Positions 5,374-62,200 of a stretch of DNA of 64,000 nucleotides are shown piece by piece; position 1 is the first letter of the stretch; each line of letters begins with the position of its first letter. The DNA is from a virus. The position numbers and the translations under genes were made by a program. The notes beneath the pieces are model-generated. The model was not told the DNA's origin. It did no database searches and saw only the letters and a list, made by a program, of their open reading frames with translations. Location: the IMG/VR virus record IMGVR_UViG_3300024999_000055, positions 32,001 to 96,000 of that record; one strand, written 5' to 3'.

Positions 5374-5644
5374 ATGTATATTATATTCTCCTTTATTTAT
5401 TATTTTACTATTCTATTTATTGTCCTAATCTTAACACAAAAACTTTCCAATCAAAAATGCTATACTTATTAATATTGTTCCTACAATTATTGCCATACAT
5501 AACATAGGTGTCATAAAATCATAAGGATGATATGCTTTACTATTAATATAATAAGCATAACCAAATCCTGAACAAATGAATATGATTAGAAATGCCCACC
5601 ACGGGATGTAGATAATTATCACCTCCTTTCATAAGTTTATTTAT

Positions 5645-18292: not shown

Positions 18293-20221
18293 TTATAAAT
18301 CTAATTCCGTAAATTTTTTTCTTATATTCCAATCATATCTTCTTGCTTTACTCCAAAAATTATATTTCCCTTCATATATTTTAGATTTATTTAATTTTAT
18401 ATTTTTTCTAGAAATCATTTTAACATATCCTATAACTCTTGAAAAAGTAGCTATATCATCACTACCACATACATTGCATTTTTCAATATTTTTACCGTCA
18501 GTTGCTTTAAATTTTTGTCCACAATTCATACAACTTGTTAATGTTGGTGTAAAAGTAATATAGTTAATTGGTTTATCAAATAATTTATTTAAATACTTTG
18601 CTAATTTTAATGGTTCAATTTTTGATTCGATAAAATGGTGTAGAATTGAACCACTTGTTGCATAACCTTGGTATTCTGCTGCGTTTTCTATTTGTTGAGT
18701 AAAATCTTCTTCACTAAATGGCAACATACATCCAGAAGTTAAATATATATCTTTACCAATTCCTTGAACAAATATTTTTCTATTATTTTCTTTTGCCCAT
18801 TTTAGATCATTTCTGGCTAATTTAATACCAGCATTTTCTGCTGGTGCATATTCGATCCCACAAGCAACTTTATCTCTTACAATAAATTCATTTACAATTT
18901 CTGTAATATATTGCATTATTTCATGAGCAAATAATTTACCTTCTGTATTTTTAAGTCCATCTTCATATCCTATATTAATCAATGCTTCATGCATACCAGT
19001 AACCGCAAATACATTAAAATAATTTTTTAAATCTTCATTAAATGAGAAAAACGTAGGGAATAAATCTTTATTTTGTTCAATAAATTTTCTTTTAGCCATA
19101 TGCCCTTCTTGCATTATTTCAAAATATTCACGAATTTTTGATTTTAATAATTCTTTATCATGCCCAAACTCAATGAATACTCTATTTAAGTTTAAATTAA
19201 GAACTTGAATAGCACCTGTATTGCCAATTGATGAACCAAATATTCCTCCTCCTACTTTTGATAATAAAGAAAGATCAATTTGTAAGCGACAGCATAGACT
19301 TCTTGATACTTCTGGATCTTTTGGTTTAATATTAGGATTTAGTTTTCTGTAATATTCATTTTTAAAAGGTTTAGTTTTGAAATTTTCAAAATAAACTCCA
19401 CCCCAAGAATACATTTTATTTAATAAATATAAAAACAATTCATTTTCATAGTTAAAATTATCATCAATTTGCACAGTAATTAATGGAAAAGTAAATGGAA
19501 TACCTGCTCTTGTTCCTTCTGCCATTACATCAATAATAGCATTATTAATTCTATCGAAATATTTTGATGGTATTTCTGAATATGTAAAATCACAAACATC
19601 GCCACTAATTATAACTAATTCATCTTTAATTTCTTCTGAAGGTTTCCCAAATTCCATTGTAATATTAGAAAAAGCGCTTTCACTACCAGAACGAAGTGGT
19701 AGGTTTAATTCGTAGATTAAAGATTTAAACATTCTTCTAAGTTGTTTATCTGAATATTTTATATCATTAATTTCTTCATTATATAAATAAGAAGCAGAAA
19801 TTGTTGTCATTTGAGATAACATTACTGCACCTGATACTTGTTGAGACATTAAAACAACTATATTACTAAAATGTCTTAGCAGTACATCTAAACTAGAACA
19901 TGGTTCTGATTCTAACATATTTTTTGCACGACTTGGGATACCTAATGTGGCAATATCTTTACAAGAAACTGATTGACAATATGAACTTAATTGTTTGTCA
20001 TGTATGTATATAACTCCATCTTTATATAAATCAACAAGTTTTTTAGGAAATATTTTTGTCATTAAATATTCTTCTTCAGATTTATTACAAATATTCTTTC
20101 TTAATAAAGGTAAGGAATATACGAAATTACTATTTTCCCTTTTTAAATAATCTGTTTTTATATCATCGTCATTTGCAATAAATTTACTAATTAATTCATT
20201 TGTATTCTTAAACATTCCCAT
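18293..20221 (-). CDS. nrdD: Class III anaerobic ribonucleoside-triphosphate reductase
   Basis: IYIHD, PFTFP, LCCR thiyl motif, PAEN, CxxC..CxxC, RVIGY glycyl-radical loop. Confidence 0.93.
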   Translation of the reverse strand: MGMFKNTNELISKFIANDDDIKTDYLKRENSNFVYSLPLLRKNICNKSEEEYLMTKIFPKKLVDLYKDGVIYIHDKQLSSYCQSVSCKDIATLGIPSRAKNMLESEPCSSLDVLLRHFSNIVVLMSQQVSGAVMLSQMTTISASYLYNEEINDIKYSDKQLRRMFKSLIYELNLPLRSGSESAFSNITMEFGKPSEEIKDELVIISGDVCDFTYSEIPSKYFDRINNAIIDVMAEGTRAGIPFTFPLITVQIDDNFNYENELFLYLLNKMYSWGGVYFENFKTKPFKNEYYRKLNPNIKPKDPEVSRSLCCRLQIDLSLLSKVGGGIFGSSIGNTGAIQVLNLNLNRVFIEFGHDKELLKSKIREYFEIMQEGHMAKRKFIEQNKDLFPTFFSFNEDLKNYFNVFAVTGMHEALINIGYEDGLKNTEGKLFAHEIMQYITEIVNEFIVRDKVACGIEYAPAENAGIKLARNDLKWAKENNRKIFVQGIGKDIYLTSGCMLPFSEEDFTQQIENAAEYQGYATSGSILHHFIESKIEPLKLAKYLNKLFDKPINYITFTPTLTSCMNCGQKFKATDGKNIEKCNVCGSDDIATFSRVIGYVKMISRKNIKLNKSKIYEGKYNFWSKARRYDWNIRKKFTELDL

Positions 20222-20226
20222 ATATA

Positions 20227-20424
20227 TTATATCTCCTTTACATATTTAATTGCTTCATTGAATTTCATAATTTTTCCATCTACTTGTAACATAGGCATAC
20301 TTAAAAAACCCTTCTCCATCATAATATTTATATCATTACATTCCTTATATGTAACTTGTTTTTGGTCTAATTTTTGTTTTAATATTTTACATTTGGAACA
20401 GTTATTAGAGTAAAGTAATATCAG
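20227..20424 (-). CDS. Glutaredoxin/NrdH-like redoxin (missed by the ORF track; CTG or ATT start)
   Basis: LYSNNCSKCKILKQKL...SMPMLQVDG; GGAGG 8 nt before CTG. Confidence 0.85.
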   Translation of the reverse strand: MILLYSNNCSKCKILKQKLDQKQVTYKECNDINIMMEKGFLSMPMLQVDGKIMKFNEAIKYVKEI

Positions 20425-20470
20425 AATAAAACCCTCCTTTTGATAAATTTATTTTAAATTTATTTTAAAA

Positions 20471-20671
20471 CTAACCACTAACTTTGCTTAATTTTTTATT
20501 TAATTTATCTCCTTTCTTCACCTTAATAAACTCTCCATAGTCATTATTCCTATTACAAATCTTCTCCATTCTCATATTATAAAGTTGTTCAGCATCAGGT
20601 TTTGCCAAATATCTAAAACACTCATTAATTTTCACACAACTACTATTTAGACAAAGAGCAATACTAGGCAA
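20471..20671 (-). CDS. Small Cys-rich protein (paralog 1)
   Basis: IALC....C.....C.RYLAKPD. Confidence 0.65.
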   Translation of the reverse strand: MPSIALCLNSSCVKINECFRYLAKPDAEQLYNMRMEKICNRNNDYGEFIKVKKGDKLNKKLSKVSG

Positions 20672-23125: not shown

Positions 23126-24114
23126 ATTTATTACCTCTTAACTTTTTTCGTCATATTCCCATTTTAATCCTAATTCACATTCATTACATATTTCTTTACT
23201 AAATTTATGTTTACAATTACTGCAACTACTATATAGGTTATTATAATCTTTCATATTAAATTGACTTCACTCTAATTTATTTATTATAAGGACATTTATG
23301 TAGTTTACATCCACAAATATCATGTGATATGCATACATTATGTAAAAAAGGATATTCAGGATGATATGTTTTTAAATCATTGAGTACTTGCGAATAACAT
23401 CTAGATATCATGCGCATTCCGCATTCAGAACAATAATAACCTGCATTACCATTTCCTTCTGCTTCTAAATTATAATTAGTAAATTCGTGACAATTTAAAC
23501 AATAATATTCATTATGAATTTTAATCACCTTCTTTACTTATTTTATTTAAATAAATGTTCATGATTACAATATTTCCAATCTAAATTTATATTGTGCATT
23601 AAATTCTTTAAATAATCATCTAATTGCTTATGACTTTTAATAGGTGGTGATATTCTAATATTAGGATTACAAATAAATAACATTGTTCTTCTTAGATATA
23701 ATAAATAATTTAAATGGAATTTATCATCCTTTCTTGCATCTTTATGATGAAAATCAAATATACCAGCACATTCATTATCAAATATAAAACCATTTTTATT
23801 AATTATATTTACTATTTTATCTCCATTCCATTTTTTAAAAGGTGAATTAAGATAATGTCCTATTGGTTTCATATATTCCTCCTTTGAATAATACAAACAA
23901 ACAATTCATTATATCTTTCCTAAATAAGAATAATTAATTAAATATAATTTACTCGTATCTATATAATTAATATGATGTTTAGATTTTAAATACTCAATAA
24001 ATTTATCTTTTGCCTCATCAACATTATTTGCTTTAGTTCTTACACAATGATTCATTATCCATTCTTCATCATAAATACAAACATATTCATCCATACAGTT
24101 AATCTCCTTTCTTT

Positions 24115-24138
24115 ATAAAATGAAAGTTTTATCATGAT
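24115..24138. repeat. Dyad site A
   Basis: ATAAAA-tgaaag-TTTTATCATGAT. Confidence 0.7.
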
Positions 24139-24531
24139 TTAATTACTAGATGTAGTATATAATTAATTTTAATATACAAGATATAGTATTTATAAATTTT
24201 GATACATTGTGGGTGGTTATACATAATTCACTATTTTTATTATCTTGTAAATATTTTTTTATATTCTTATTTATTATTTCTTTATTAGTTTTATAATCAT
24301 CACTTGAATAACAGCAATATGTTATTATTGCCTTCCCACAATTTTCACATGATTTTTCATGTGCTCCTTTATAGCAAGCGACACATTCAGAATTTTCTGC
24401 ACCACATTCACTTTTATCATTATGTTTAAAACATTCTCCATAATAATTTAAATTAACATCTTTTCCACATAAAAAACATTTACTATATTTCATAATATTT
24501 TATCTACTTTTTATTTAATATTACTTAAGTA

Positions 24532-47396: not shown

Positions 47397-48836
47397 TTAA
47401 TTAATCTCTAATGCATTAAATCTTTTTGCTATCTCTTTAAAAGATGAATTATAAGCATTTATAAATCTTTCGTTATTATTTAAGTCATCTTCATTAAGAT
47501 ATTTTTTATTACGTCCATCATAATCATCACAAACTACTGGTTCAATAACACTCCTATCATATGAATTTTGTATAGTAATAGTTTTAATCATTCTTGGTTC
47601 ATTGTTTTCTTTCTCATATTCAAAAATTAGATTTAAATTATTTGATAATTCTATAGGGAATATAGTATTATATCTTCTGTTCCAATACTTATTATATCTT
47701 CTATTATTTAATTCCTGTATATTCTTTTTAATAATTTCTAAAATATACTTATATCTATCCATAATTTTATTATAATCCAATGTAAAATTTTCTTTTAACA
47801 TTTTAGATTCTATATTTATAGGATTAATTTTTTTAAAATCATCTTGTATTATTAAAGTATTCTTCATTTCAAATATAATTTCATCAATATCCTTTCCCCA
47901 ACATAATCCAACTACAGAAGTTATATCATCATTAGTAATGTCAATATTTTCTGGTACAGCAAATAAAATAGGATCTAATCTGCAATATAAATATTCTATT
48001 TGTTTTTGTTGTTTAAGAATAGTATTTTGTAATTGTTGGTTTTGTGATTCTAAATTCATTTGTACTTGTCTATTTCTATATTTTTCATTTATGAATTCTG
48101 TTTCTAATTTATTTAATTTGTTTGAAATTGAATTTATTTTATCACTTAATGTTTTTATATTTATATCAAATGATTGTGCTAGTGATTTTAAATTTTCATC
48201 ATTGGTTTTCGTTGCCATATATAAATTTTTCTGTGTAGGAATTATTAAATCTAATGTTTGAAATATATTTTCAAAGTAATCAGAATAATAAATACCTTTA
48301 ATTACATCACTTTTAATTTGTTCCCATACATTATAATAGTCTATAGGGCATAATAAATAACATTGATAATTGGTTGTTGTATCCTGTCTTAATAATTCAT
48401 TAAAATATTTATACCCTTTCTTTAATTCATATGAATTATCCTCTATATCAAATAGTTTATCAATTTCAGTATATTCAACAGGAATTATTACCATATTAAA
48501 AATATTTGCAAGCGTTCTATATTCAGATATTTTAACTTTGGGTAGATGATTTAATGCTGTTAAAATATCTGAATATTCTCCATCACAACTAGGAATCTTT
48601 TTTAATTTAGGAGGTAATCTTCTTTCCGTTATCCAACTATTTTTTCTTATTTCTAAACTTTCATTTTTTAATTTATTATTTATTTTATTTTTTAATTCTG
48701 GTGTTTCTCCTAGATATTCTAATGATTGTTTATATAAATCAATCACTTTTCCAAAATTGTTTATAATGTCATTATCTTTTTCTAATAACTTAACAGGTTT
48801 ATTTTCAAATTTAACTGCCTGTAATAAATTAGGCAT
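47397..48836 (-). CDS. Hypothetical coiled-coil protein
   Basis: 479 aa ORF, own promoter and RBS. Confidence 0.75.
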   Translation of the reverse strand: MPNLLQAVKFENKPVKLLEKDNDIINNFGKVIDLYKQSLEYLGETPELKNKINNKLKNESLEIRKNSWITERRLPPKLKKIPSCDGEYSDILTALNHLPKVKISEYRTLANIFNMVIIPVEYTEIDKLFDIEDNSYELKKGYKYFNELLRQDTTTNYQCYLLCPIDYYNVWEQIKSDVIKGIYYSDYFENIFQTLDLIIPTQKNLYMATKTNDENLKSLAQSFDINIKTLSDKINSISNKLNKLETEFINEKYRNRQVQMNLESQNQQLQNTILKQQKQIEYLYCRLDPILFAVPENIDITNDDITSVVGLCWGKDIDEIIFEMKNTLIIQDDFKKINPINIESKMLKENFTLDYNKIMDRYKYILEIIKKNIQELNNRRYNKYWNRRYNTIFPIELSNNLNLIFEYEKENNEPRMIKTITIQNSYDRSVIEPVVCDDYDGRNKKYLNEDDLNNNERFINAYNSSFKEIAKRFNALEIN

Positions 48837-48866: not shown

Positions 48867-48895
48867 ATTTTAACATTTTGTTGTTAGTTTGTCAA
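48867..48895 (-). promoter_or_regulatory. SigA-type promoter
   Basis: TTGACA-17 bp-TGtTAAAAT. Confidence 0.75.
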
Positions 48896-48908: not shown

Positions 48909-48982
48909 ACGAAATGCGTCTTTGGTAATGATATTTATACTACATATAGTATATTGTAATAATTATATACTATATGTAGTAT
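48909..48982. promoter_or_regulatory. Site A plus tandem NrdR-box-like pair
   Basis: ACGAAA-tgcgtc-TTTGGT; ATACTACATATAGTAT (48937) and ATACTATATGTAGTAT (48967). Confidence 0.7.
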
Positions 48983-49321
48983 TTATTCTATAATTCATTC
49001 AATGTATTTCTAACTCTTCTTACCAACCAAAACCATTTTTCTGTTTCATATTTTTGTCTAAGCAAATCATCAATATCAAACCAATAACTTTTAAAATTAC
49101 CACTATTCATAAATTTAATCATTGCTAAATATGCTTCACTCTCTGTTAATTCTTTGTTTTCAAATTGTTTATTAATAATTATTGCACTATTCATTACTAT
49201 TGGTGCTTTTCTAGCAACAATTTTTACTTTATCTCTTCTTGGCATAATAATCACCTCTTTAGGCAATTATATCACTTATTATTATATTTATCAATATATA
49301 TTTTTCTCATATGTATAATAT

Positions 49322-50047
49322 TTATATTACTATTTTATAATTCATTTTTAAATATAATTCATCTAATTCTTTTTTAAATCTATTTTCTAGATCCTGAACA
49401 CTTTCTTTTGCTCTAAATTGATTCCAAGACCTATTATCCATATCTTTAAGTTGTCCCCATAAATCAGGATAATATATGTATAAATTTCTTAATTCTCTTA
49501 AACTAGAGAAAGGACAACACCAACAACTTACTCTATTAAATTTAGTATATAGTCCACCCCAATCAAAACCTTTATCATAACAATATTTTAATGCTTCCCC
49601 TTCTGTCATTTTCCAATCAATTAATGGATATCTTTTAAATTGATTATCATCTACTCTATTTAATTCATCCATACCAATTCCTATATATTGAATATAACTA
49701 CCATTTCCATATTTTTTATTTAAATATGATTTTATTAAATCTCTTTTTAATACTGAAGTACACCATCTATTTTGACCTTGAGATGCCCATGCATATCCTT
49801 TTTGTCCTTTATTTTTACCTCTCGTTTTTTCATGATCAAACATCCAATAATCAAATGTCTTATTCTGAAGAATTGTAATTGGCATACTTGTATATTGTTT
49901 TATTTTTTCAATGTGTTCATAAAGTTGAGGAAACTCTTTTGTTGTATCTGCACAAACAATTTCGTCTATTCGCATATCTTTTTCCTTCATTAATAGGAAA
50001 AGTGCTGTTGAATCTTTCCCACCAGAAAAACTAACTATATGGTTCAA
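49322..50047 (-). CDS. PAPS reductase-family (PP-loop) protein
   Basis: SFSGGKDS, ADT..EFP, RWCT..LK, PLIDW, RVSCWCCP. Confidence 0.88.
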   Translation of the reverse strand: MNHIVSFSGGKDSTALFLLMKEKDMRIDEIVCADTTKEFPQLYEHIEKIKQYTSMPITILQNKTFDYWMFDHEKTRGKNKGQKGYAWASQGQNRWCTSVLKRDLIKSYLNKKYGNGSYIQYIGIGMDELNRVDDNQFKRYPLIDWKMTEGEALKYCYDKGFDWGGLYTKFNRVSCWCCPFSSLRELRNLYIYYPDLWGQLKDMDNRSWNQFRAKESVQDLENRFKKELDELYLKMNYKIVI

Positions 50048-50084
50048 ATAAATTAATCCTCCATTTATTATATTTTAAGTTGTG

Positions 50085-50159
50085 ATAAATTTTATGTTTT
50101 GTTGTGATTTTTATACTACATATAGTATTCACAATCTATATCTATATTATATGTAGTAT
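50085..50159. promoter_or_regulatory. Site A plus tandem NrdR-box-like pair
   Basis: ATAAAT-tttatg-TTTTGT; boxes at 50113 and 50144. Confidence 0.7.
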
Positions 50160-50178
50160 CGTAAAAACATTAAACCTA

Positions 50179-50625
50179 CTAAATCATTGACTCAATTTCT
50201 TCAATTGCTAAAGATACTTGTCTTTCGCTAGAGAGAAGAACATGAAGTTTACTTTCAAGTAATTTCAATTTCCTATCTTCTTCTTCATATTTCAAAATCT
50301 CTAATTTTAATTTAATATCCGTAATCCATTGATCAAATACATAACCGGAAATAACATATTCTTCATCTAGTCCCAAATCAACGGCAGATAATAAATATGA
50401 ATTTAATTTAACTAGTAAATGAGTTAAACCTTCTCTATTTAATACTTGTAAATTCAATCTTACTCCATCCAATTCAATACTACAATTTGTTAATGGTGAA
50501 AATTTCTTTTTAGTTTTTAAACCTTTCTTCTTCTCTGCAATCTGCGATTTTAACAACATAATCTTATCATCATTTGTCATTTGTTTTTCACTCATATTAT
50601 TTTCCCTCCGAATATAATTTTCCAT
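50179..50625 (-). CDS. Hypothetical helical protein
   Basis: ORF coupled to the upstream gene. Confidence 0.7.
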   Translation of the reverse strand: MENYIRRENNMSEKQMTNDDKIMLLKSQIAEKKKGLKTKKKFSPLTNCSIELDGVRLNLQVLNREGLTHLLVKLNSYLLSAVDLGLDEEYVISGYVFDQWITDIKLKLEILKYEEEDRKLKLLESKLHVLLSSERQVSLAIEEIESMI

Positions 50626-51691
50626 TTGTTAGATATGTGTTTTTATACATTGGTTTATATTTATTGTATATTTCCTCCAAAGTATACTCTACATATATTC
50701 TATTATTATTAAGAAAACCATAAGTGTTACCATCTCTAAGATAATATTTACCTGTATTATTATACATTTTTTCTACAGAAATATATCTTTTATCTGTATC
50801 ATAAAAATATGTCCCTCTATTTGTTGCCTTTTTACTAAATTCTTCAAAAGTATATTCTATATATTCATCCTTACTATCATCAACAGGAGAATAGTGTTCG
50901 TTACATTCAAGTTTATCAAATAATTCTGCGTAATTATCGACACATTCTGAAGATATAATTGATATAAATCTTTCTCCTAGACTTTTTAATGTTAATAAAC
51001 TAATCCATTTACTATTATATTTATCATTATCATCATACTTTCTGATAAAATAATGATGTTTGCCTTTGTTTATTTTATTCGTTACCCATTCATAATCATA
51101 ACGACTGTTTGATTTATATATTCTTTCATTTTTAGTATCATAATAATCAAATCTACCCATATAAATATATTCTTCATCTGATTTAGTTTTATATGTACCA
51201 CCTAATACTAAATCTTTTACTTTAACATAATTCTTCTCATGTAATATTTCATTATATTGGATGATTTCTTTATAGTCTGGTGAATCTATAGGCAATAATA
51301 ATAAATCCTTGCCTGAGTAAGCATAAAGAAATTGCCCTTCTAACCCTTTTCCTTTAATACTGTTATTATTTTCCAAAATATATAATAAATTCTCTATTGA
51401 TATTTCTATTTCAAAATTACGAGGATCGTATACTCTGCAATATGCATGTCTATAATTCCAATTACTCTGATAATCCCCAACTTTCTTATTTAATACAAAT
51501 CCTGATGTTGGCTCATTTACAAATTCTTGTGGTTCGATATTTTTATCGCGCCAGCCGTTCCAGGATTTTTCTTTACGCAATACATTTTTTTGATCATAAT
51601 AAATTACATATGCTAATTTTTGAGTATATGTATCAGAACGATTTTGATAACCTACTTTAATAGTTTTGGGAATGAAGATATTTGTTTTTAT
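50597..51691 (-). CDS. Hypothetical phage protein, ATA start
   Basis: 37-codon in-frame extension IKTNIFIPKTIKVGYQ...; GGAGG 8 nt before ATA. Confidence 0.7.
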   Translation of the reverse strand: MKTNIFIPKTIKVGYQNRSDTYTQKLAYVIYYDQKNVLRKEKSWNGWRDKNIEPQEFVNEPTSGFVLNKKVGDYQSNWNYRHAYCRVYDPRNFEIEISIENLLYILENNNSIKGKGLEGQFLYAYSGKDLLLLPIDSPDYKEIIQYNEILHEKNYVKVKDLVLGGTYKTKSDEEYIYMGRFDYYDTKNERIYKSNSRYDYEWVTNKINKGKHHYFIRKYDDNDKYNSKWISLLTLKSLGERFISIISSECVDNYAELFDKLECNEHYSPVDDSKDEYIEYTFEEFSKKATNRGTYFYDTDKRYISVEKMYNNTGKYYLRDGNTYGFLNNNRIYVEYTLEEIYNKYKPMYKNTYLTNGKLYSEGK

Positions 51692-51911
51692 AAGATTAAC
51701 CTCCTTTCTTATTTTTAAGAATTAATTATTTCATCAAATTTTTCACCGCAATTACTACAATATTTATTCATTGAACTTTGATTACTACTATTACAATTAG
51801 TACAATAATACACAGTTATCTTTTTCCCTTCAAAAGTATCATAACAACATTCTTCTTTAATTAGTATTTTTGCCATAATATGATTGCTCCTTTATTAATT
51901 TATTTTATTTA

Positions 51912-53153
51912 TCATTCTCCTGCCTTATAATTATAAATAGGTTTAATAATATCTAATATTTCAACAGTATTATTAATATTATTAATAATTTCTTCTATAG
52001 GTTTATAAGCCATAGGTGCTTCATCAAGCGTATGTGTACTTACAGAATTAGTAAAAATATCTTTCATAGATTCTTGATAATCTTCCATAGATATATTTTC
52101 TTTTGCCTTACTTCTACTCATTAATCTACCAGCACCATGAGGAGCAGAATAATTCCAATCTGCATTTCCTTTGCCTACAGCTAATATTGATCCATCACGC
52201 ATATTAATAGGAATTAAAACTTTTTCACCTTCATAAGCAGAAATAGCACCTTTACGAATAATATTATCTTTAAAATTAATGTAGTTATGAATTGTTTCAA
52301 ATATTTTAATATTATGATATTCTTTTGCAGTTATTTCTCCTATTTTTATAAGTTTTAATAAAATAATATCTGCTATGATATATCTATTTAAAGTAGCATA
52401 TTCTTGGCAAAGTTTCATATCATGTAAATATTTATCTCTCCATTCACCAGAAAGAAAACATAAATCTTTTGGATAAGATGGATGTAAATTATTATACCTT
52501 TTCTCTAATTCTTTTAATGCACTATGAATTTCATTTCTCTTTCCTTGTTGCTTATAATCAGCAATTAACTTTTCTTTTTGTTCATAAAAATCACTTTTGC
52601 CACTACATAAATCTATAGCAATGTTTTGATAATATTCTGCTACTTGTTTTCCTAAACTTCTACTTCCTGAGTGAATTACAAGATATAAATTATCATTGCT
52701 ATCTTTATTTACTTCAATAAAGTGATTTCCTCCACCAAGAGTACCTATACTTTTTTCTATTCTTTTTGTATCTTTAAGTGACCTATAGCAATGTAATTCT
52801 CTCATTTCATCAAAGTCAGATATTCTATTTTTATGTGTATTTCTTCCTAATGGGACAAATTCACGAATAATATCATCTAATTTTTGTAAATCAATATTTA
52901 CTTTTCCTAATTCAAAAACTCCCATACCACAACCGATATCTACCCCTACAATATTAGGAATTACTTTATCTCTTAAATCAGCAGTAAATCCTATTACACA
53001 GCCTGACCCATAATGACAATCTGGCATAATACGAATTTTACCACCTTCTACAAAAGGTTGATTACATAATTCAATTATCTGAGATATAGCAGTTTGTTCA
53101 ATATTATCAGTAAAAACTTTTGCAGTATTGTATTTTCCTTTTAATTCTAACAA
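51912..53153 (-). CDS. rtcB: RtcB RNA ligase
   Basis: MPDCH, GVDIGCG, GTLGGGNHFIE, HSGSR, HNY, RKGA, SAPHGAGR, DEAPMAYK; start moved to the TTG after GGAGG. Confidence 0.96.
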   Translation of the reverse strand: MLELKGKYNTAKVFTDNIEQTAISQIIELCNQPFVEGGKIRIMPDCHYGSGCVIGFTADLRDKVIPNIVGVDIGCGMGVFELGKVNIDLQKLDDIIREFVPLGRNTHKNRISDFDEMRELHCYRSLKDTKRIEKSIGTLGGGNHFIEVNKDSNDNLYLVIHSGSRSLGKQVAEYYQNIAIDLCSGKSDFYEQKEKLIADYKQQGKRNEIHSALKELEKRYNNLHPSYPKDLCFLSGEWRDKYLHDMKLCQEYATLNRYIIADIILLKLIKIGEITAKEYHNIKIFETIHNYINFKDNIIRKGAISAYEGEKVLIPINMRDGSILAVGKGNADWNYSAPHGAGRLMSRSKAKENISMEDYQESMKDIFTNSVSTHTLDEAPMAYKPIEEIINNINNTVEILDIIKPIYNYKAGE

Positions 53154-53180
53154 GTTTTCAACCTCCTTTATCTTAATGAC

Positions 53181-53209
53181 ATTATACAATTATTTTTATA
53201 TTGTGTCAA
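53181..53209 (-). promoter_or_regulatory. SigA-type promoter for rtcB
   Basis: TTGACA-17 bp-TATAAT. Confidence 0.8.
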
Positions 53210-53873
53210 TACCTAAAATCGTTACCAATCTAATTATTTGACATGATTTATTAATCCACTTTAATAAAATACTCAATACTAGATATTTCACTTCCTATAA
53301 TTGCAACATTCTTTTCTGCACAATCTATTAATTCAAAATGTGATAATTTAATTTCATTAGTTTGTTTAGGCATTATATTCATAATTAATTCCTCAAATTT
53401 AAGTTGTGTTTTAATCTTATATTCCTTACCGCTTTTCATGCAAATGATATAATCATACATAATATATTTTCTCCTTTTTTAACTATTTATAGAGTAATCT
53501 AACCTAACTTTTTTAACTTTATATTTATCCATACTATCTCTTTCTATCCATTCTCTTACATATTCATTTGCTTCTGCTCTGGTATCAAAAGTAATTGCTT
53601 CACTAATTAACTTATTAATTTCATATTCAGTTTTAAAATCATTCATAGATTCAATTCTTGAGTAATATCCATCTTGGGTTATATTATATATAACATAATA
53701 AATATATGTTTCTGCTATTTTCATATATTATCCTTTCTTAGATATTGTGTATGTATATTTAATATTATTTTTGAGTATAATCTTATTAGAGAAGTTGGTA
53801 GCAAGTTTAATATATAGTAATATTACCTCCTATGTTTTATTGCATATATTACACTACCAAATTCTCTTTTTGT

Positions 53874-54113
53874 TTATCTAAACTTATTCTTCAATTCTTT
53901 CTTATACAAATCCAATACTTCTTCTTGATTACTATCAATATAATCATAAATAATTTCTTCAATTTGAGATGAAAAATTAATTCGTTTAAGTTGATCTCTC
54001 ATTTCATCTTTAATTAATGATTTAATTTCATCATCTATGATAGAGTTTGCAATCTTATTAAATCTTTCAGCGATAGATTTTAAGATTATGTAATTTTCTG
54101 TTTGATTTTTTAT
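53874..54113 (-). CDS. Hypothetical protein, ATA start (missed by the ORF track)
   Basis: 79-codon frame, GGAG 9 nt before ATA, stop abuts site A at 53856. Confidence 0.6.
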   Translation of the reverse strand: MKNQTENYIILKSIAERFNKIANSIIDDEIKSLIKDEMRDQLKRINFSSQIEEIIYDYIDSNQEEVLDLYKKELKNKFR

Positions 54114-54880
54114 GGTTTCATTCTCCTTTATATTTATAATTTCTTCTCATATGAAATGGTCTACTATCTTCAGGATCATATGGATAACATTTTTCACATA
54201 TAATTGGCGTATTACTTTCATTTACAATACTTTTTATTAATTTATCTCCATATTTACATTCAGTACAATAAACATGTTCAAACATAATATTTATTTCTCC
54301 ACATTTAATATCTTGCATATATTAAATCTCCTTTATATTTTAATAAAATGTGTATGGTTATGATTTTATTCTATTACTTCAATTTTAACTTTCTTACCAT
54401 TTAATCTTCTGCATAACTCCCATATACTTATTCCATCTTTTCTTCCTAATAAAAACCATTGCCCTTCCATGTCATTATAAATTTCACCCTCATATGTAAT
54501 ATCAAGATATGGAATTATTAATTCATCTTCCACATATTTAATAAATATTTCTTTAGAATAATCTAAACCCCAATATGGGTCATCATAGTCAATTTTATGT
54601 CCATTATTTAGTATGCCATGTATACCAAATTGAATATTTTCACTAACCCATCCATTACAATTAGAAGGATAAATGGTAGCATAATATTCAGTAATAGTTA
54701 TAGAATATTTTTCTCTAATATATTCTATTGCTTTAGTTAAATTAATATTGATTATATCTTGCTTATTCATACATTCAATTTCATGTTGCACACAATTATA
54801 ATGATCTGTAAATTCTTTATCACATTTTTCACATTTATAAATTTCTTTTGGCATAATAATTTAGTCTCCTTTTTATTAAT

Positions 54881-54982
54881 ATGAAAGCAAAATTTGGCTC
54901 AAATATTACCAAAGATTCCTTTGATCATGATTTCTATACTATATGTAGTAGATATATGGTTTTGTATCACTACATATAGTAT
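54881..54982. promoter_or_regulatory. Two A sites plus tandem NrdR-box-like pair
   Basis: ATGAAA-gcaaaa-TTTGGC; ACCAAA-gattcc-TTTGATCATGAT; boxes at 54936 and 54967. Confidence 0.7.
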
Positions 54983-54991
54983 ATTATTAAC

Positions 54992-56692
54992 TTATCCTAC
55001 CTTATATATTTCTTTTTCATTAATAACTATAAATTTACCACCTTCTCGCAATAATTTACTATCTTCATTTACAATATTACATTCAAAGTCTTTATAAATA
55101 TTTTTTTCATAACTATAACCCTTAATACATCCATCGCTTGGTTTAAATATTATATTATTATAGAAACATAAATTTCCTAAATCGTTAGTGTATTTTATTG
55201 CTTCACTTTCATATATTACATTATTTTTGTTTAAAACATAAGTATTAAATAATCCTTTTTGATTTTCAGTAATAAATAACCATCTCTTAGTTACTATATC
55301 ATAATGCAAACCATAATTAATAATTTTATCAGTATTCATTAATGTGTAATTATATCCTGAAACATTAATGATTTTCATATTGTCATATATATTGCAAACA
55401 AAATATGTCTTATCATCAATAATTTCAAAAATATTATTAAAAGAAACTTTACTAATATTTTTATTATAGTTTCCATTTTCATTAATGGTTAATTCAACCA
55501 AACTATTACTTAAATTAATATAATATACTTTATTATCAATTATTCTTACATCACTTTTATTAATCTTCTCAAATGTAAAAATATTATTTGATGTTTTAAT
55601 CTGAATTTTATTATTAAATATTCCATAGATAATACTTCCATCATTAGAAAAATAATATCTATTCTTCTTATTTTTCACCTTATATTTTGATTTAATATGA
55701 ACGATATTATCATCATTATCTAAATATAAGTCTAAACTCAATATAGTTTTAATACTCTCATTTGTAAAATACAAAAATACTGGTATCCCATTACTACTTT
55801 CAATTTTAATAGGTTTATCTATTATCTTTGCTAAATTATTGCATATTGGACATTCCGTAAATTTACCATAGTAATATTCTTTATCTTTCTGACAATATTT
55901 TAAATTATTAAAATAGTCATCTAAACTATTATCTATGATAAATCTTTTTTTATTTTCAAATACCTCTTTTAATTCTTCTAACATTTTAGGTGACATATAA
56001 TTCCATTTATTTATTGTTTTAGGAATAGTAACTTTATTATTATCAATAACTGATATACCTTTATTCATACGTTCTAATATATTTATATCTGGAGTAATTG
56101 TTCCTCCAAATGGATGTATCCTAGTTAAAGATTTAAATATTAATATTCCAAAAGCATAATCATCTGTGTCAGAAGAAAAATTATTACTTGTTAATAACGG
56201 ATCTTTAAATGAATCCATACATACTAAACCTTTGTATTTATCTATAGTCCAACTATCACAATCAATAAAATATATATTAAAATATTTATCAAATAAAATA
56301 TTACAATCATTTAAGTCACTAATATATATATTTTGATTGTGTAATTTTATTAGAGTATCTTTAATATTAACCAACATTTTAAGTATATCTTTTGATTTAA
56401 TATTATTTGTTTGTAAATATTTCTTATTAGATAGTCTTTTAAATTCTTCACCTTCAACTTTATCCATTAAATATCCTACAAACTTACCTTTATTATAAAC
56501 AATATCATTAGGAATGATTACGTTATCAGGTAGTGTTTTAGACATTAATAACTTTACTTTTTCTAATTTTTCATTTTTATCAATATTACTTTTGTATATT
56601 TTAATAATCTGATTTTGATATTCATAAATTATTCCTTCTCCACCTTCGGCTAGTGGATTTTGTTTTAAGAACTTATCATCTACCTGAATCAT
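54992..56692 (-). CDS. Ser/Thr protein kinase with a beta-rich C-terminal domain
   Basis: AEGGEG Gly loop, IKIY, ISDLNDCNIL catalytic loop, FIDCDS, HPF. Confidence 0.88.
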   Translation of the reverse strand: MIQVDDKFLKQNPLAEGGEGIIYEYQNQIIKIYKSNIDKNEKLEKVKLLMSKTLPDNVIIPNDIVYNKGKFVGYLMDKVEGEEFKRLSNKKYLQTNNIKSKDILKMLVNIKDTLIKLHNQNIYISDLNDCNILFDKYFNIYFIDCDSWTIDKYKGLVCMDSFKDPLLTSNNFSSDTDDYAFGILIFKSLTRIHPFGGTITPDINILERMNKGISVIDNNKVTIPKTINKWNYMSPKMLEELKEVFENKKRFIIDNSLDDYFNNLKYCQKDKEYYYGKFTECPICNNLAKIIDKPIKIESSNGIPVFLYFTNESIKTILSLDLYLDNDDNIVHIKSKYKVKNKKNRYYFSNDGSIIYGIFNNKIQIKTSNNIFTFEKINKSDVRIIDNKVYYINLSNSLVELTINENGNYNKNISKVSFNNIFEIIDDKTYFVCNIYDNMKIINVSGYNYTLMNTDKIINYGLHYDIVTKRWLFITENQKGLFNTYVLNKNNVIYESEAIKYTNDLGNLCFYNNIIFKPSDGCIKGYSYEKNIYKDFECNIVNEDSKLLREGGKFIVINEKEIYKVG

Positions 56693-56703
56693 TTAATCAT
56701 CTC

Positions 56704-57348
56704 CTAAAATGCAATTGTAATATCATCTTTAAATAATTTATGTTCTCTATTTATTAATCTTTTAATAGCAAATTCTTTTCTGTTAATTAAACTTTTTTCA
56801 AATTCCTCTTTAAATTCACTATTTAAAATATATTGCAAACCATCTGAAGCAATACCTATAGATTTATACTCGTCTTTTTTATAATATCTTAAATCAAAAT
56901 TCACTCCATTTTTATAATCAGATAAATATTCTTCTGATATATAATTATAGGCATAATATTTAGGTTTATTATTTTGTTCTATTGTTTCATATTCTAAAAT
57001 ATCATCATATTTTTGTTTAATAATAATTCCGTCTCCACATGAATAAACAACAAAATGTTCTTCTAATTCTTCAACAAATAAAATAGTAAATAATAAGAAA
57101 TCCTTAATATTATTTGGTTTATTATTTATAATATTACTATTAAATATAACATTAAAAAAATCTTTTGTGCTAATAATAGGACATCCTAAATCTTCGTACA
57201 TGTGACAAAACAATTTAACTCCCACTTCTGAATGTAACCCTTCCGAACAACCATCTACAACACATTTAATGTTATTATGTATAAATCCATAATCTTGATT
57301 ATTTAAACCTTTTTCTAAATGACTATATCCTATTTTATTTATAAACAT
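56704..57348 (-). CDS. PP2C-like protein phosphatase
   Basis: GYSH..NNQD, VVDGCS, CGDG, ASDG, DDITI. Confidence 0.88.
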   Translation of the reverse strand: MFINKIGYSHLEKGLNNQDYGFIHNNIKCVVDGCSEGLHSEVGVKLFCHMYEDLGCPIISTKDFFNVIFNSNIINNKPNNIKDFLLFTILFVEELEEHFVVYSCGDGIIIKQKYDDILEYETIEQNNKPKYYAYNYISEEYLSDYKNGVNFDLRYYKKDEYKSIGIASDGLQYILNSEFKEEFEKSLINRKEFAIKRLINREHKLFKDDITIAF

Positions 57349-57366
57349 ATTATAATCTCCTTAATT

Positions 57367-57405
57367 TATACTAAGGTAAGAATTAATATATCTTACCTTA
57401 GTATA
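57367..57405. terminator. Perfect 15-bp intra-operon hairpin
   Basis: TATACTAAGGTAAGA-9 nt-TCTTACCTTAGTATA. Confidence 0.65.
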
Positions 57406-57421
57406 TTTATGTTTTTATTTA

Positions 57422-58096
57422 TTACATTGTAAAGAAATCATCTGTTTTATTTACTACATTTTTAGAACTTTCAATAACAGATTTTGATAAACAATTAAAC
57501 GCCTTTCTTAATTCTGATGCAGAACTCTTAACATCAAGTATATTTTTAAAATCTAATTGTTTAGCAATACTTGTTGCTCCTCCACCAAAACTTATAAATG
57601 CAGTTGTAATTTCTTCATTGTTAAGTGTCTGGATACTTCTTTTAGCATCTGATATTACATTTCTTGAAGAAGTATTATCACCATCACTAAATATTGCAAA
57701 TACTGCTTTAACCCTCATTCCTTGATTTTTTAGAAATGTTATATAGTTAGTTAATTTCTCACTACCTTCTACGATTACATCATATAATGCCGTCATGCCA
57801 TTTGAGGAATAAGCAATATCAAAATCTGATACTTTTTTATATCCTCCAACATTAATATAATCTGCAAAATCTGCTCTTGCTACAAGGATTTCGTCAATTT
57901 CTTTTGAATCTAATAGTGCATTTTTAAATTCATTTAATGAAAATTTCATGTCAGATACAAATGGATACATTGAACCAGAACCATCAATACCTACAAAGAT
58001 AAGATTTACACTTTCATTATCAATTTCTTCTACAGAAGTATTCTCAATTTCAATTTCGTCCATACCTAAAATATCTAATTCGTTTGTCATAGTCAT
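57422..58096 (-). CDS. vWA domain protein (TerY-like)
   Basis: MIDAS IDGSGSM, TALYD, FSDG. Confidence 0.85.
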   Translation of the reverse strand: MTMTNELDILGMDEIEIENTSVEEIDNESVNLIFVGIDGSGSMYPFVSDMKFSLNEFKNALLDSKEIDEILVARADFADYINVGGYKKVSDFDIAYSSNGMTALYDVIVEGSEKLTNYITFLKNQGMRVKAVFAIFSDGDNTSSRNVISDAKRSIQTLNNEEITTAFISFGGGATSIAKQLDFKNILDVKSSASELRKAFNCLSKSVIESSKNVVNKTDDFFTM

Positions 58097-58142
58097 AATA
58101 TATTCCTCCTATTATTTTTATTATTTTATATTTTTATTATCT

Positions 58143-59051
58143 TTAAAGTTTTAAGTCTGTTGATTTAAGTATATTTACTTTATATTGCTTTTTAAAAGAT
58201 TTAAAAGCATTTTCTGTTGTTTGTTCAAAACTTGGAATAGAAGACATACAATCTTCAAGAATGTAAATTTTCTTAGTTACTTCAGGTTTATTTTGATAAT
58301 ACTCAAGAATTTGTTTAATTGATTCTAAACAACAGTGTGATTTTGCCTCACCCAAAACAACAATCTTATCAAACTTTTCAATCTTATTAAGAAAATCAAT
58401 ATTGATATAGTTTTTTGTATCATATTCTGGCTTAATCACCCCGTACATCTCGCTCAAAGGGTCTTGACCTTTAACAAGTCTAAGTGTCATACTTTTCTTT
58501 GCTACTGAATGAAAATAAACCATATTAGCAAATTGATTTTCTAATGCACAACCACTTGTACCTTGTAGGCAATGATATGTCCATATAACTAAAACCTTTT
58601 TACCTTGTTTTTCTAAATTCTCCACATATTCTCTACTTGCTTTAGGATTAACAACAGGCATCCATTTTCCAGAATCTAAATCTGCCAATGTAATTGCTGT
58701 AAATGGAGTAGGATTATTGCCTTTAGCATCTACCCACCAGCAAGGATGGAAAATTTGGAATGGGTTATGTGTATCAATTGATACAGCAATTTGTGAGATT
58801 TTATCCATATTATCATAAATAAATCTTGTGGAATTTTCAACATCTTTAATTGCTCCAGGTACACCCAACGCTCCATTATCCATAAAATCTTGTTGAACAT
58901 CAATTCCGATTACTAATACACTTTCTGAATTTTTACTTGCAGGAATCATTTGCTCATTGTTTGCTAATACTAACAAGTCATTCATCTTGATTGGATTTTC
59001 TGTTGCCCCGATAGATGATACATTTACGATTTCCTCAAATTTTGTTTTCAT
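58143..59051 (-). CDS. Nicotinamidase/isochorismatase-family cysteine hydrolase
   Basis: IDVQQDF, DTH...H, WTYHC, KG, GEAKSHC. Confidence 0.85.
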   Translation of the reverse strand: MKTKFEEIVNVSSIGATENPIKMNDLLVLANNEQMIPASKNSESVLVIGIDVQQDFMDNGALGVPGAIKDVENSTRFIYDNMDKISQIAVSIDTHNPFQIFHPCWWVDAKGNNPTPFTAITLADLDSGKWMPVVNPKASREYVENLEKQGKKVLVIWTYHCLQGTSGCALENQFANMVYFHSVAKKSMTLRLVKGQDPLSEMYGVIKPEYDTKNYINIDFLNKIEKFDKIVVLGEAKSHCCLESIKQILEYYQNKPEVTKKIYILEDCMSSIPSFEQTTENAFKSFKKQYKVNILKSTDLKL

Positions 59052-59104
59052 GTTTTTAATCTCCTTTTTATTTATATTTTTTATTTGTTTTATTTATTGA
59101 TGTT

Positions 59105-59133
59105 ATTCTACCATACTAGTTAGTGACTGTCAA
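59105..59133 (-). promoter_or_regulatory. SigA-type promoter for the four-gene kinase operon
   Basis: TTGACA-17 bp-TGgTAGAAT. Confidence 0.8.
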
Positions 59134-59175
59134 CATATTTATTTTAATATTCTATTAATATTATACTTTATTTAG

Positions 59176-59255
59176 ATCATGACAAAACCAATATTTTATA
59201 TTGAAATTTTCCTACATATAGTAGTATTTAATTATTTAACCACTATATGTAGTAT
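59176..59255. promoter_or_regulatory. Site A plus tandem NrdR-box-like pair
   Basis: ATCATGACAAAA-ccaata-TTTTAT; boxes at 59209 and 59240. Confidence 0.7.
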
Positions 59256-59262
59256 ATAAAAA

Positions 59263-62200
59263 CTATTCTTCTACAATCTCATATTCATCATCAATTAAAT
59301 ATATCCATTCGTTTCCTTTATATTGAACAAATACTCCCCTAATATTACCTTCCCAATTATAATCACCTATTGATTCTTTAGATTCTTCTATAGTTAACTC
59401 ATTATATATTTTTGCTTCAACAATTTCTCCAACTTTCTCATTGAAATAATTAGATAATATTTTAACTTTCATATGTATTATTCCTCCTCTTCATCCCATT
59501 CTTCTAACAATTCTATTGCTTCACTATAACCTTTCCAGTTATCCACTCCTGCACATTTAAGTGCTTCTAAAAAATTACTATCTTTTAATAATTTATTATA
59601 TTCTTCTAACGTAATATTTATAGTTTCATTATTATATGTATTAAATTTCTCAATCAATTTAAAACATCTAGGTTCAATACTCTTATCAATATTAACACCA
59701 GGAACAAATGTTAATCCTTCGGCCACATTATCTCCTTGTTGAGTAGAAACTTGAACTAAACAACCATTAGGTAAATTGCATACCTTTGTTGATTTCATCC
59801 ATTTTTGATTTTTAGAACTTGCTTTACATAATAATGCAAAAGTATCTCCGTCACCATAAACTTTAATATCATTAATTTTCTCTTTTGCTTGCTCAACGTT
59901 TTGAATGTTTAATGTTTTACTATTCATATTATTTTCCTCCTCTTTATTATTTGATATTTTTCTTTTAAATTCTTTACATCCACCAGGAGTGCAATCACCT
60001 TTGCCACAATTATTATCATTTCTACAATAACCCATACATAAATTATCATTAAATTGCTTTGCACAATCAAAACAACAATCTACTTTATTATATTTATTCA
60101 TATGTATTCATTATCTCCTTTACATTTTTTTAAAATCTCAAATGCCATGCGTTCATCGCTCCACTTAACGCACCATTATCACCAAGCAATAAATATCCAC
60201 AAAACATAATAAAAGTAGTAGTTACAATGTGACTTACCTCAATACTACCAATAACCTTTGTGTTTAATAATTCTTTCATAATAATCTCTCCTCTTTATTT
60301 TTATATTTTTCAAATATCATAATATATTTTATTATCTTTAACTGCACCATTAACATCTTTTATTTCTTTAATATAATATCTACTATCACAATCATTCTTA
60401 CTACTAAAAGTATGAATAATTGTTGTTATATAATATTTATTATTATCTATATCTTTAACTTTTATCTTATAAGTATGTGCCCAATAATTATTATTACCAT
60501 AAATATAAATGATAATATTAATTTTATAATCAAAATTTTCACCTCCTATATGTTTTATTAATTTTAACTTTTTTATTAAAATCAGGATAATATACTTTTG
60601 CTAATTTCCTATGTTGTTTATTAACTATATTAAAATCTTTTGTATTGAGTGAAAATTCTAATGTTTTATATTTATTTTTATTTAATGTAGATATTATAAA
60701 TACTAATAGAAAATGAATTGCAAATATTGTTAACCACAATCTAAAAAGATTAATAATATCAATAAATAACATTCCTATAATTATAGCACAAATAAAATTT
60801 AAAAAACAAAATAAATTAATTTCTAAATAATTATTATGAATAAATTTAACTCTATCATTATAATTAAGATATAAATAACTTAACCAAAATTCTAGTAATA
60901 TCATTGAATTATTCCTTTGTATTAAGTTTAATATCGTCACGAAACATTCAATTGATTAAATTTGCACCGTCCAAATATTTTCATCATTATCTTTTAAGCA
61001 TTCTGCATCTAATTTATTTTCATTATTAAGTTGTAATAATTTATCAATTAATTTCATAATCTTATTCTCCTTTCTCTTCTCTACATAAACTTTCATGAAT
61101 ACTACTTGCAATACTAATATACTCTGCCATTTCATGTAATTCTTCTCTTAATTCTAATTGATCTGCTAATTCTTCGGCAAATCTTTTATATTCTTGCCAT
61201 GTAATATTAGAAATAAAATTTTTAACTACTTCTTTATCATGTTCTAAATCAACTGCCATTTTTACAATGAATTCTTTAAATTCATCAATTGCAATATTAA
61301 TATTTTCTTCTCTTTGTTCTTTAGACATCTCACTAAATTTCATAGTGTTTATCCTTTCTATTTCAATATTAAAGTTAGATATTTCTATATATTGTGGTCG
61401 TGTATATAACCACAATATATAGAATACATATACTTTTATGTATAATTTTACTTTTCCTTCTTACTCTTACTCCCTACACTATTTGTAACATTACTAATTG
61501 ATTTTTTCATATTATCAATATCAGTAAGTAAAAATACCATAGCCTGCTCTTTGGTAAATCCAATTTCAACATAAGCGTCGAATTGATTCTTTCTTACTTT
61601 TGCTTTAGCAGTAAAATATTCAGTATTATTTGAAAAGTCCTTGTATACTTCTAATAATTCTTGACCAACCATATAAACTAATGGTTTAAATTGATCTACC
61701 TGCTCTTTAATCATCCCCTTTAATTCATCTGGATTCTCCAATAAATTGTATAATAATTTGTTCATATTAACATTCTCCTTTTCGTTTTTATATTTTTATT
61801 TAATAGCAATACATTATAACGTATCACTATTTTACACACTCCATAAACACATCAATATTATCATCAATTATTTTAACTATCTGACACAATTCATCTAACA
61901 TACTAGCAGTTAAATGATTATCCATTGTATCCGTATCAATATAAGCATATTTTTCTTTAACATTGATTACAATAGAAATTTCAGTTTCATAGATATAAAC
62001 ACATATCTCACTAAAAGGCCAAATATGTAATGACAATTTGCTACCTTCATAATCTCCAATTATATTTAATATTTGTTTAATTATGCTTTGTAGATTTGTA
62101 TTGCTATTAGGTAAAATATTATTATTTACATTTTCTTTAATTTTATCTTTTTCTTCATTTTTACCTATAAACTCCAAATTATCTATAGCAAAACATAATT

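Follow-up and report, generated by a model that had tools for sequence, protein, structure and literature searches.

NrdR-type operator pairs coupled to a second dyad precede accessory genes of a putative large clostridial phage

Introduction

The repressor NrdR controls bacterial ribonucleotide reductase genes through operators made up of a pair of partly palindromic 16-bp boxes with an AT-rich core (Rodionov and Gelfand consensus; PMC9110341, PMC12051234, PMC13584703). Within each box, C4, A6, A8, T9, T11 and G13 are highly conserved, and at least 63% of the bases between C4 and G13 are A or T (PMC13584703); the linker between the boxes is usually 15-16 bp long, with linkers of 14-17 bp allowing good binding and those of 12-13 bp only poor binding (PMC12051234). 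DNA is bound by NrdR tetramers only if these carry both dATP and ATP, whereas ATP alone yields oligomers that do not bind (PMC9110341). A recent regulon study found the paired boxes to be limited to reductase operons (bioRxiv 10.1101/2025.03.28.645925), and our literature searches recovered no description of NrdR box pairs at non-reductase genes of phages. Here we analyse such pairs in the virus record IMGVR_UViG_3300024999_000055 of IMG/VR, a single linear contig of 106,330 bp. Bases 32001-96000 of this contig, a stretch of 64,000 nucleotides, make up the window, and coordinates below are those of the window unless the contig is named.

The phage pairs share with the bacterial operators the two partially palindromic 16-bp boxes, the AT-rich core, a linker of 14-15 bp and a centre-to-centre distance of about three helical turns. 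They differ from them in that five pairs are present within 106 kb, in that they front accessory genes rather than reductase genes, the phage nrdD itself being devoid of them, and in that an additional dyad, which reductase operators never show, accompanies them at a distance of 9-10 bp. Judging from the sequence, the phage probably uses these NrdR sites to tie accessory genes to the deoxyribonucleoside triphosphate (dNTP) state of the cell.

A further point of comparison is provided by the PeSL (promoter-early stem-loop) cassettes, which are mobile regulatory cassettes of T4-type phages (PMC2839356, PMC4122927). As in that system, short conserved intergenic regulatory cassettes are repeated here between the accessory genes of a large phage, and are located where closely related genomes diverge through the gain, loss or replacement of genes; for the PeSL cassettes, such breakpoints result from ordinary homologous recombination at the conserved sequences (PMC2839356). 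The PeSL cassette, however, combines an early promoter with a stem-loop and lacks an operator for a host repressor, whereas the cassette described here has an NrdR operator plus an AAA-N6-TTT dyad as its conserved parts, with the promoter presumed rather than seen.

Results and discussion

NrdR-type box pairs in the viral contig

The contig, which is about 57% complete according to CheckV and has a G+C content of 25%, appears to derive from a large phage of clostridia-like bacteria. The core CTACATATAG occurs seven times in the window, against 0.18 occurrences expected. The whole contig was scanned for pairs of 16-bp boxes, with C4, A6, A8, T9, T11 and G13 required and the box centres 30-33 bp apart. 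The pairs, with the number of conserved positions present in the two boxes together, are as follows.

24143..24189: NrdR box pair, one box at 24143-24158 and the other at 24174-24189, linker 15 bp, 12/12 positions
48937..48982: NrdR box pair, boxes at 48937/48967, linker 14 bp, 12/12 positions
50113..50159: NrdR box pair, boxes at 50113/50144, linker 15 bp, 11/12 positions
54936..54982: NrdR box pair, boxes at 54936/54967, linker 15 bp, 12/12 positions
59209..59255: NrdR box pair, boxes at 59209/59240, linker 15 bp, 12/12 positions
61382..61425: off-specification pair, boxes at 61382/61410, linker 12 bp, no dyad

The first five pairs thus retain 59 of the 60 conserved positions, the sole miss being a T at position 4 of the box at 50144, whereas first-order Markov shuffles of the contig contain on average 0.01 pairs with 12/12 positions. 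The inner eight bases of CTACATATAG and of CTATATGTAG include seven A/T each, in agreement with the 63% rule. The C7/G10 asymmetry of the 54936 pair is oriented opposite to that of the remaining pairs. An earlier, sequence-only reading of this DNA had listed the pairs at 48937/48967, 50113/50144, 54936/54967 and 59209/59240, all of which proved to be real and far above the shuffles, but had overlooked the one at 24143/24174. It had also included 61382/61410, where a pair of good boxes indeed exists, without seeing that its linker is out of specification. The 61382 copy carries a 4-nt deletion, since its orthologues in two related viral contigs, L010 and L014, possess linkers of 16 bp as well as a dyad 10 bp away; the deletion has probably weakened it.

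Between 47 and 64 kb of the window, every gene is on the minus strand. The pairs begin 5-19 nt past the stop codon of the upstream gene, between minus-strand genes, and the pair at 24.1 kb overlaps the end of the upstream open reading frame (ORF).

In the likely host family, that of Clostridium thailandense, NrdR is present in 38 of the 40 genomes sampled. By a pattern count, there are three strict pairs in the 0.106 Mb of the contig and six in about 230 Mb from 61 genomes of this likely host family, so that the density in the phage is approximately 1000-fold higher.

The same pair at bacterial reductase operators

We searched bacteria, with one genome per species, for the exact phage-type pair, ACTACATATAGT-N19/20-ACTATATGTAGT, and obtained 38 loci from many phyla. 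Eight of these (L024, L026, L027, L029, L038, L043, L052 and L059), all in a single metagenome-assembled genome (MAG) of Peptostreptococcales, are not NrdR sites but copies of a long palindromic repeat, and were set aside, leaving 30. This repeat, present in at least eight copies with the arms TTAGGGTGTCAAAAG...CTTTTGACACCCTAA, resembles a miniature transposable element, and its centre matches the pair pattern fortuitously.

In 10 of the 30 loci, again from many phyla, the pair lies immediately upstream of a reductase gene, namely, nrdD in seven (L022, L025, L035, L049, L053, L055 and L058), nrdE in Terrisporobacter (L030), nrdJ in Clostridium thailandense (L048) and nrdB in a Gracilibacteria MAG (L023). 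Because reductase genes make up a tiny share of any genome, this association is not due to chance. The identification of the phage pairs as NrdR operator sequences, already made in the sequence-only reading, is strongly supported, since the sequence rules for NrdR boxes hold and the same sequence is found at bacterial reductase operators.

In two Lachnospiraceae MAGs, the gene behind the same pair is carB, which encodes the large chain of carbamoyl-phosphate synthase (L032:3733-3775 and L041:3637-3680), and a pair in a Bacteroidales MAG (L047:1063-1106) has flanks nearly identical to those of the carB loci. The NrdR regulon may therefore reach into pyrimidine synthesis.

A dyad coupled to the pairs across phages

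On the side of the next gene, four of the phage pairs are accompanied by a clear dyad, hereafter site A, with the consensus AYMAAA-N6-TTTKRT, often extended to ATCATG...CATGAT, at a distance of 9-10 bp from the box. The copies associated with pairs are as follows.

24115..24132: site A, ATAAAA-N6-TTTTAT, 10 bp from the nearest box, followed on the minus strand by a ribosome-binding site (RBS) and the start of a 61-aa ORF
48909..48926: site A, ACCAAA-N6-TTTCGT in minus-strand view, 10 bp from the box
50085..50102: degenerate copy of site A, at the 50113 pair
54908..54925: site A, 10 bp from the box, in minus-strand view ATCAAA-N6-TTTGGT with ATCATG ahead of it
59182..59199: site A, ATAAAA-N6-TTTTGT, 9 bp from the box

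A fixed distance from site A to the first box had been claimed for four pairs; it holds for the dyads at 48909, 54908 and 59182, which end 10, 10 and 9 bp before the box, respectively, whereas at 50085 only a degenerate copy exists. In all, about a dozen site A dyads are present in the contig, most of them without an NrdR pair, and the N6 centres differ among all these copies.

The coupling of pair and dyad is not limited to this contig. Of 28 pairs taken from the contig itself together with a first group of viral loci, 17 have a dyad within 21 nt against 0.4 expected, 13 of the 17 being 9-11 bp away and three at 20 bp, that is, one helical turn further. A second, independent set came from viral contigs that were retrieved by means of the canonical box ACTATATATAGT; among its 112 distinct pairs, 97 have the dyad, at exactly 10 bp in 88. 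No dyad is present beside the bacterial reductase or carB operators, and the two bacterial pair loci that do have one look like prophages. The composite of pair and dyad is thus general among phages and phage-specific. In most cassettes, an RBS and a start codon follow 11-32 nt past the dyad. The proteins encoded downstream of the viral cassettes belong to many unrelated families, with no reductase among those tested. Because linkers and flanks diverge between the cassette copies while the spacing is kept, the spacing is under selection.

Among operators of the Cro/CI type, those of phage 434 have the form ACAA-N6-TTGT. Site A likewise has half-sites of 4-6 bp around a 6-bp spacer with a free centre, its arms vary by phage group, it is located close to where a transcription unit starts, and a 68-aa Xre-type protein is among the products of the contig; unlike those operators, it occurs in about a dozen dispersed copies rather than in a clustered immunity region, and its binder is putative. 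The half-site geometry matches that of operators for Cro/CI-type helix-turn-helix dimers, and a regulator encoded by the phage probably uses site A as a second operator. That this regulator is the 68-aa Xre-type protein is a guess.

The gene for this helix-turn-helix protein lies beyond the window, at 5446-5607 of the contig on the plus strand, and a single NrdR-like box is found about 50 nt upstream of it, at contig position 5398. In other phage or prophage contigs, a pair is located 38-124 nt upstream of lysis genes for Amidase_2, Amidase_3 and XhlA proteins (L012:9338-9384, L021:4994-5041 and L020:3255-3301), and in another large phage (L139:2832-4820), the gene for an NAD-dependent DNA ligase directly follows a cassette of pair and dyad that belongs to a cluster of three.

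Homology breaks at the cassettes

Homology between this contig and related viral contigs stops exactly at the cassettes, at 59208, 50087 and 61437 of the window; in two of the relatives (L006 and L013), it ends at the degenerate site A copy at 50085..50102. Two further relatives, L001 and L002, have a different upstream gene at the site A of the 59.2-kb cassette. In Clostridium phage FA67, the closest cultured relative judged by NrdD, there is no pair within the 42 kb examined, and a megablast comparison of the region with 50,697 phage records gave zero matches.

A candidate gate responsive to dNTPs

We consider it somewhat likely that the cassette is a cis-acting transcription gate that depends on the host NrdR, responds to dNTPs and is paired with a second operator. 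The phage would have taken up host NrdR operators as part of a compact intergenic cassette, with NrdR box 1, a linker of 14-15 bp, NrdR box 2, a gap of 9-10 bp, the AAA-N6-TTT dyad and the leader of the next gene in this order. Given that NrdR binds only with dATP and ATP, the gate would be shut at high dNTP levels: early in infection, or as long as dNTPs are plentiful, NrdR would occupy the sites and prevent the accessory genes behind them from being transcribed, and once phage replication has drained the dNTP pool, NrdR would leave and the genes would switch on. In Streptococcus pneumoniae, the NrdR regulon becomes strongly derepressed upon lytic phage infection (PMC6755750).

The block might take either of two forms. 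The boxes could overlap and occlude a promoter, as they do at reductase genes, which is favoured by a weak, A-rich motif of -10-like character that has T as its last base, lies immediately after box 2 and would put the transcription start at the dyad. Alternatively, NrdR could be a roadblock to RNA polymerase reading through from the upstream unit; the position of the pairs 5-19 nt past a stop codon, the lack of a conserved -35 element and the location of the promoter downstream of the cassette at 48.9 and 59.2 kb argue for such control of read-through. The dNTP-sensing roadblock that the sequence-only reading had raised as an option is kept as one form of the proposed gate. The two promoters in question are as follows.

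48867..48895, minus strand: sigma-70-like promoter with TG, TTGACA-17-TAAAAT, downstream of site A and in front of the gene for a 479-aa protein
59105..59133, minus strand: sigma-70-like promoter with TG, TTGACA-17-TAGAAT, downstream of site A and in front of an operon that encodes a 302-aa protein, a PP2C phosphatase and a kinase

Several observations weigh against a gate of this kind. No promoter could be placed with confidence, the promoter scan being not enriched over shuffles; a -35 element is not conserved in the linker, nor is the region upstream of box 1. Because the near-consensus sigma-70-type promoters at 48.9 and 59.2 kb lie downstream of both boxes and dyad, the boxes would be at about -60 to -110, which is atypical for repression. 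The downstream genes are mostly without assigned function and have no common tie to nucleotide metabolism. Furthermore, the 91%-identical contigs L001 and L002 lack the 59.2-kb pair while keeping site A, the promoter and the kinase operon, and L003, at 71% identity, has no pairs at all, so that the pairs are dispensable add-ons.

A broader proposal, which we put forward tentatively as possible, is that large phages of Firmicutes share a cassette, spread by recombination, that joins an NrdR operator to a phage-specific operator at a fixed 10 bp and thereby puts arbitrary genes, whether accessory, replication or lysis ones, under dATP/ATP control. If so, the cassette would serve as a timing device of general use, by which a repressor regarded as dedicated to reductases is hijacked, with phages reading the host dNTP sensor to schedule their own genes. 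It would make the reuse of a host metabolic repressor by a virus open to direct testing, would add non-reductase targets to NrdR, itself explored as an antibacterial target, and would represent a putative natural, compact, dNTP-responsive promoter module.

Alternative explanations

The pairs could conceivably lack any role in cis and act as decoys, hundreds to thousands of replicated operators soaking up the scarce NrdR, derepressing the host reductase and raising dNTPs. Such titration would fit the full match of the boxes to the conserved positions and their roughly 1000-fold higher density than in likely host genomes, the absence of boxes from the phage's own nrdD, the location of two pairs upstream of, rather than over, the only recognisable promoters, and the accessory-like coming and going of pairs between close relatives. 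We nevertheless regard it as unlikely: a decoy needs neither a fixed 10-bp distance to a dyad nor a place ahead of an RBS, both of which hold in about 100 distinct cassettes, and a phage with its own class III reductase depends less on the enzymes of the host. Titration could still occur as a by-product of cis-regulatory sites, and the same phage sites could also disturb the control of precursors in the host. It is quite unlikely that NrdR is uninvolved altogether and its boxes are resembled incidentally, either because a phage protein binds them or because they function as RNA hairpins in processing, 3'-end protection or termination. Four of the pairs can indeed form hairpins, at -16 to -25 kcal/mol and z-scores of -3 to -6, pairs are found 5-19 nt after the upstream stop codon, which is the position of a terminator, and the region is almost devoid of predicted intrinsic terminators. 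A hairpin, however, is the automatic product of two near-palindromic boxes and hence no independent evidence; the six NrdR-specific positions and the three-turn spacing are kept while the linkers diverge, the identical sequence serves bacterial reductase promoters, and no zinc ribbon of the NrdR type, nor any NrdR or ATP-cone, is encoded in the contig, which is only about 57% complete. A function of the pairs as intrinsic terminators was rejected: the stems are AT-rich, A-rich sequence follows them, there is no U tract after any pair, and the 24.1-kb pair has no hairpin potential (z-score -0.45).

Two further explanations invoke recombination. In one, the pair and dyad form a mobile cassette that is spread by recombination at the dyad, the NrdR half being a remnant with little present function. 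The breaks of homology at the cassettes, the presence or absence of pairs between 91%-identical genomes and the decayed 61.4-kb copy, with its 12-bp linker and no dyad, are all compatible with such inert passengers; yet, the retention of 59 of the 60 positions and of the correct spacing in five copies with unrelated linkers and flanks points to purifying selection on NrdR binding and makes this possibility very unlikely. In the other, which had been offered as an option in the sequence-only reading, NrdR bound beside site A would be an architectural accessory factor that aids a recombinase, as ArgR and PepA do at cer, and cassette exchange would be tied to dNTPs. The fixed, helically phased distance that separates the pair from a dyad whose centre is 6 bp long, together with the mosaic breakpoints at the cassettes, would suit this role, but we deem it highly improbable, because the N6 centres differ between copies, so that strand exchange between them by a tyrosine recombinase is not feasible. 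For the same reason, site A was rejected as a tyrosine-recombinase core site of the dif/lox type, where an identical central region is required. Moreover, the conserved core comprises 4 bp per arm and the outer positions vary by phage group, as in helix-turn-helix operators, the dyads lie directly ahead of the RBS, and ordinary homologous recombination would be just as likely to leave breakpoints at the cassettes, as it does with PeSL (PMC2839356). The decoy, recombination-accessory and RNA-hairpin explanations are, in our assessment, weaker than that of a cis-acting gate.

Genes behind the cassettes

None of the pairs in the contig fronts a reductase operon; the genes downstream of the five cassettes, all on the minus strand, are a PAPS-reductase-like gene, a kinase/PP2C operon and uncharacterised ORFs.

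23909..24094, minus strand: first gene after the 24.1-kb cassette, 61 aa, no family match
47397..48836, minus strand: first gene after the 48.9-kb cassette, 479 aa, no family match
49322..50047, minus strand: first gene after the 50.1-kb cassette, PAPS-reductase-like protein, 241 aa
54366..54854, minus strand: first gene after the 54.9-kb cassette, 162 aa, no family match
54992..59051, minus strand: operon after the 59.2-kb cassette, encoding the 302-aa protein, a 224-aa protein, the PP2C phosphatase and the protein kinase
18293..20221, minus strand: phage nrdD, without an ATP-cone and without an NrdR box upstream

For the 479-, 162- and 61-aa proteins, there were zero matches in Pfam, PHROGs, NCBIfam and the protein atlas. 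The pairs bracket the kinase operon and the PAPS-reductase gene pair, as had been noted before; this is literally true and results from the location of every pair in front of a new block of genes. The first protein of the kinase operon, of 302 aa (58143-59051, minus strand), has a weak match, with an E-value of 4e-7 and under the family cut-off, to nicotinamidase (isochorismatase-like).

The phage encodes its own class III reductase, and its NrdD is 62% identical to the NrdDs of Clostridium tyrobutyricum phages. The contig scan found no box pair upstream of this nrdD or of its glutaredoxin-like leader ORF, in line with the earlier observation that the phage's own reductase promoter region is free of such boxes. 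Within the region of nrdD and its leader (18293-20500, minus strand), the small leader ORF ahead of nrdD has an apparent CTG start behind a strong RBS. Upstream of the 59.2-kb cassette, the minus strand encodes a 207-aa protein (59478-60101), the C-terminal 50 residues of which match PHROG families annotated as host RecBCD nuclease inhibitor with an E-value of about 1e-14.

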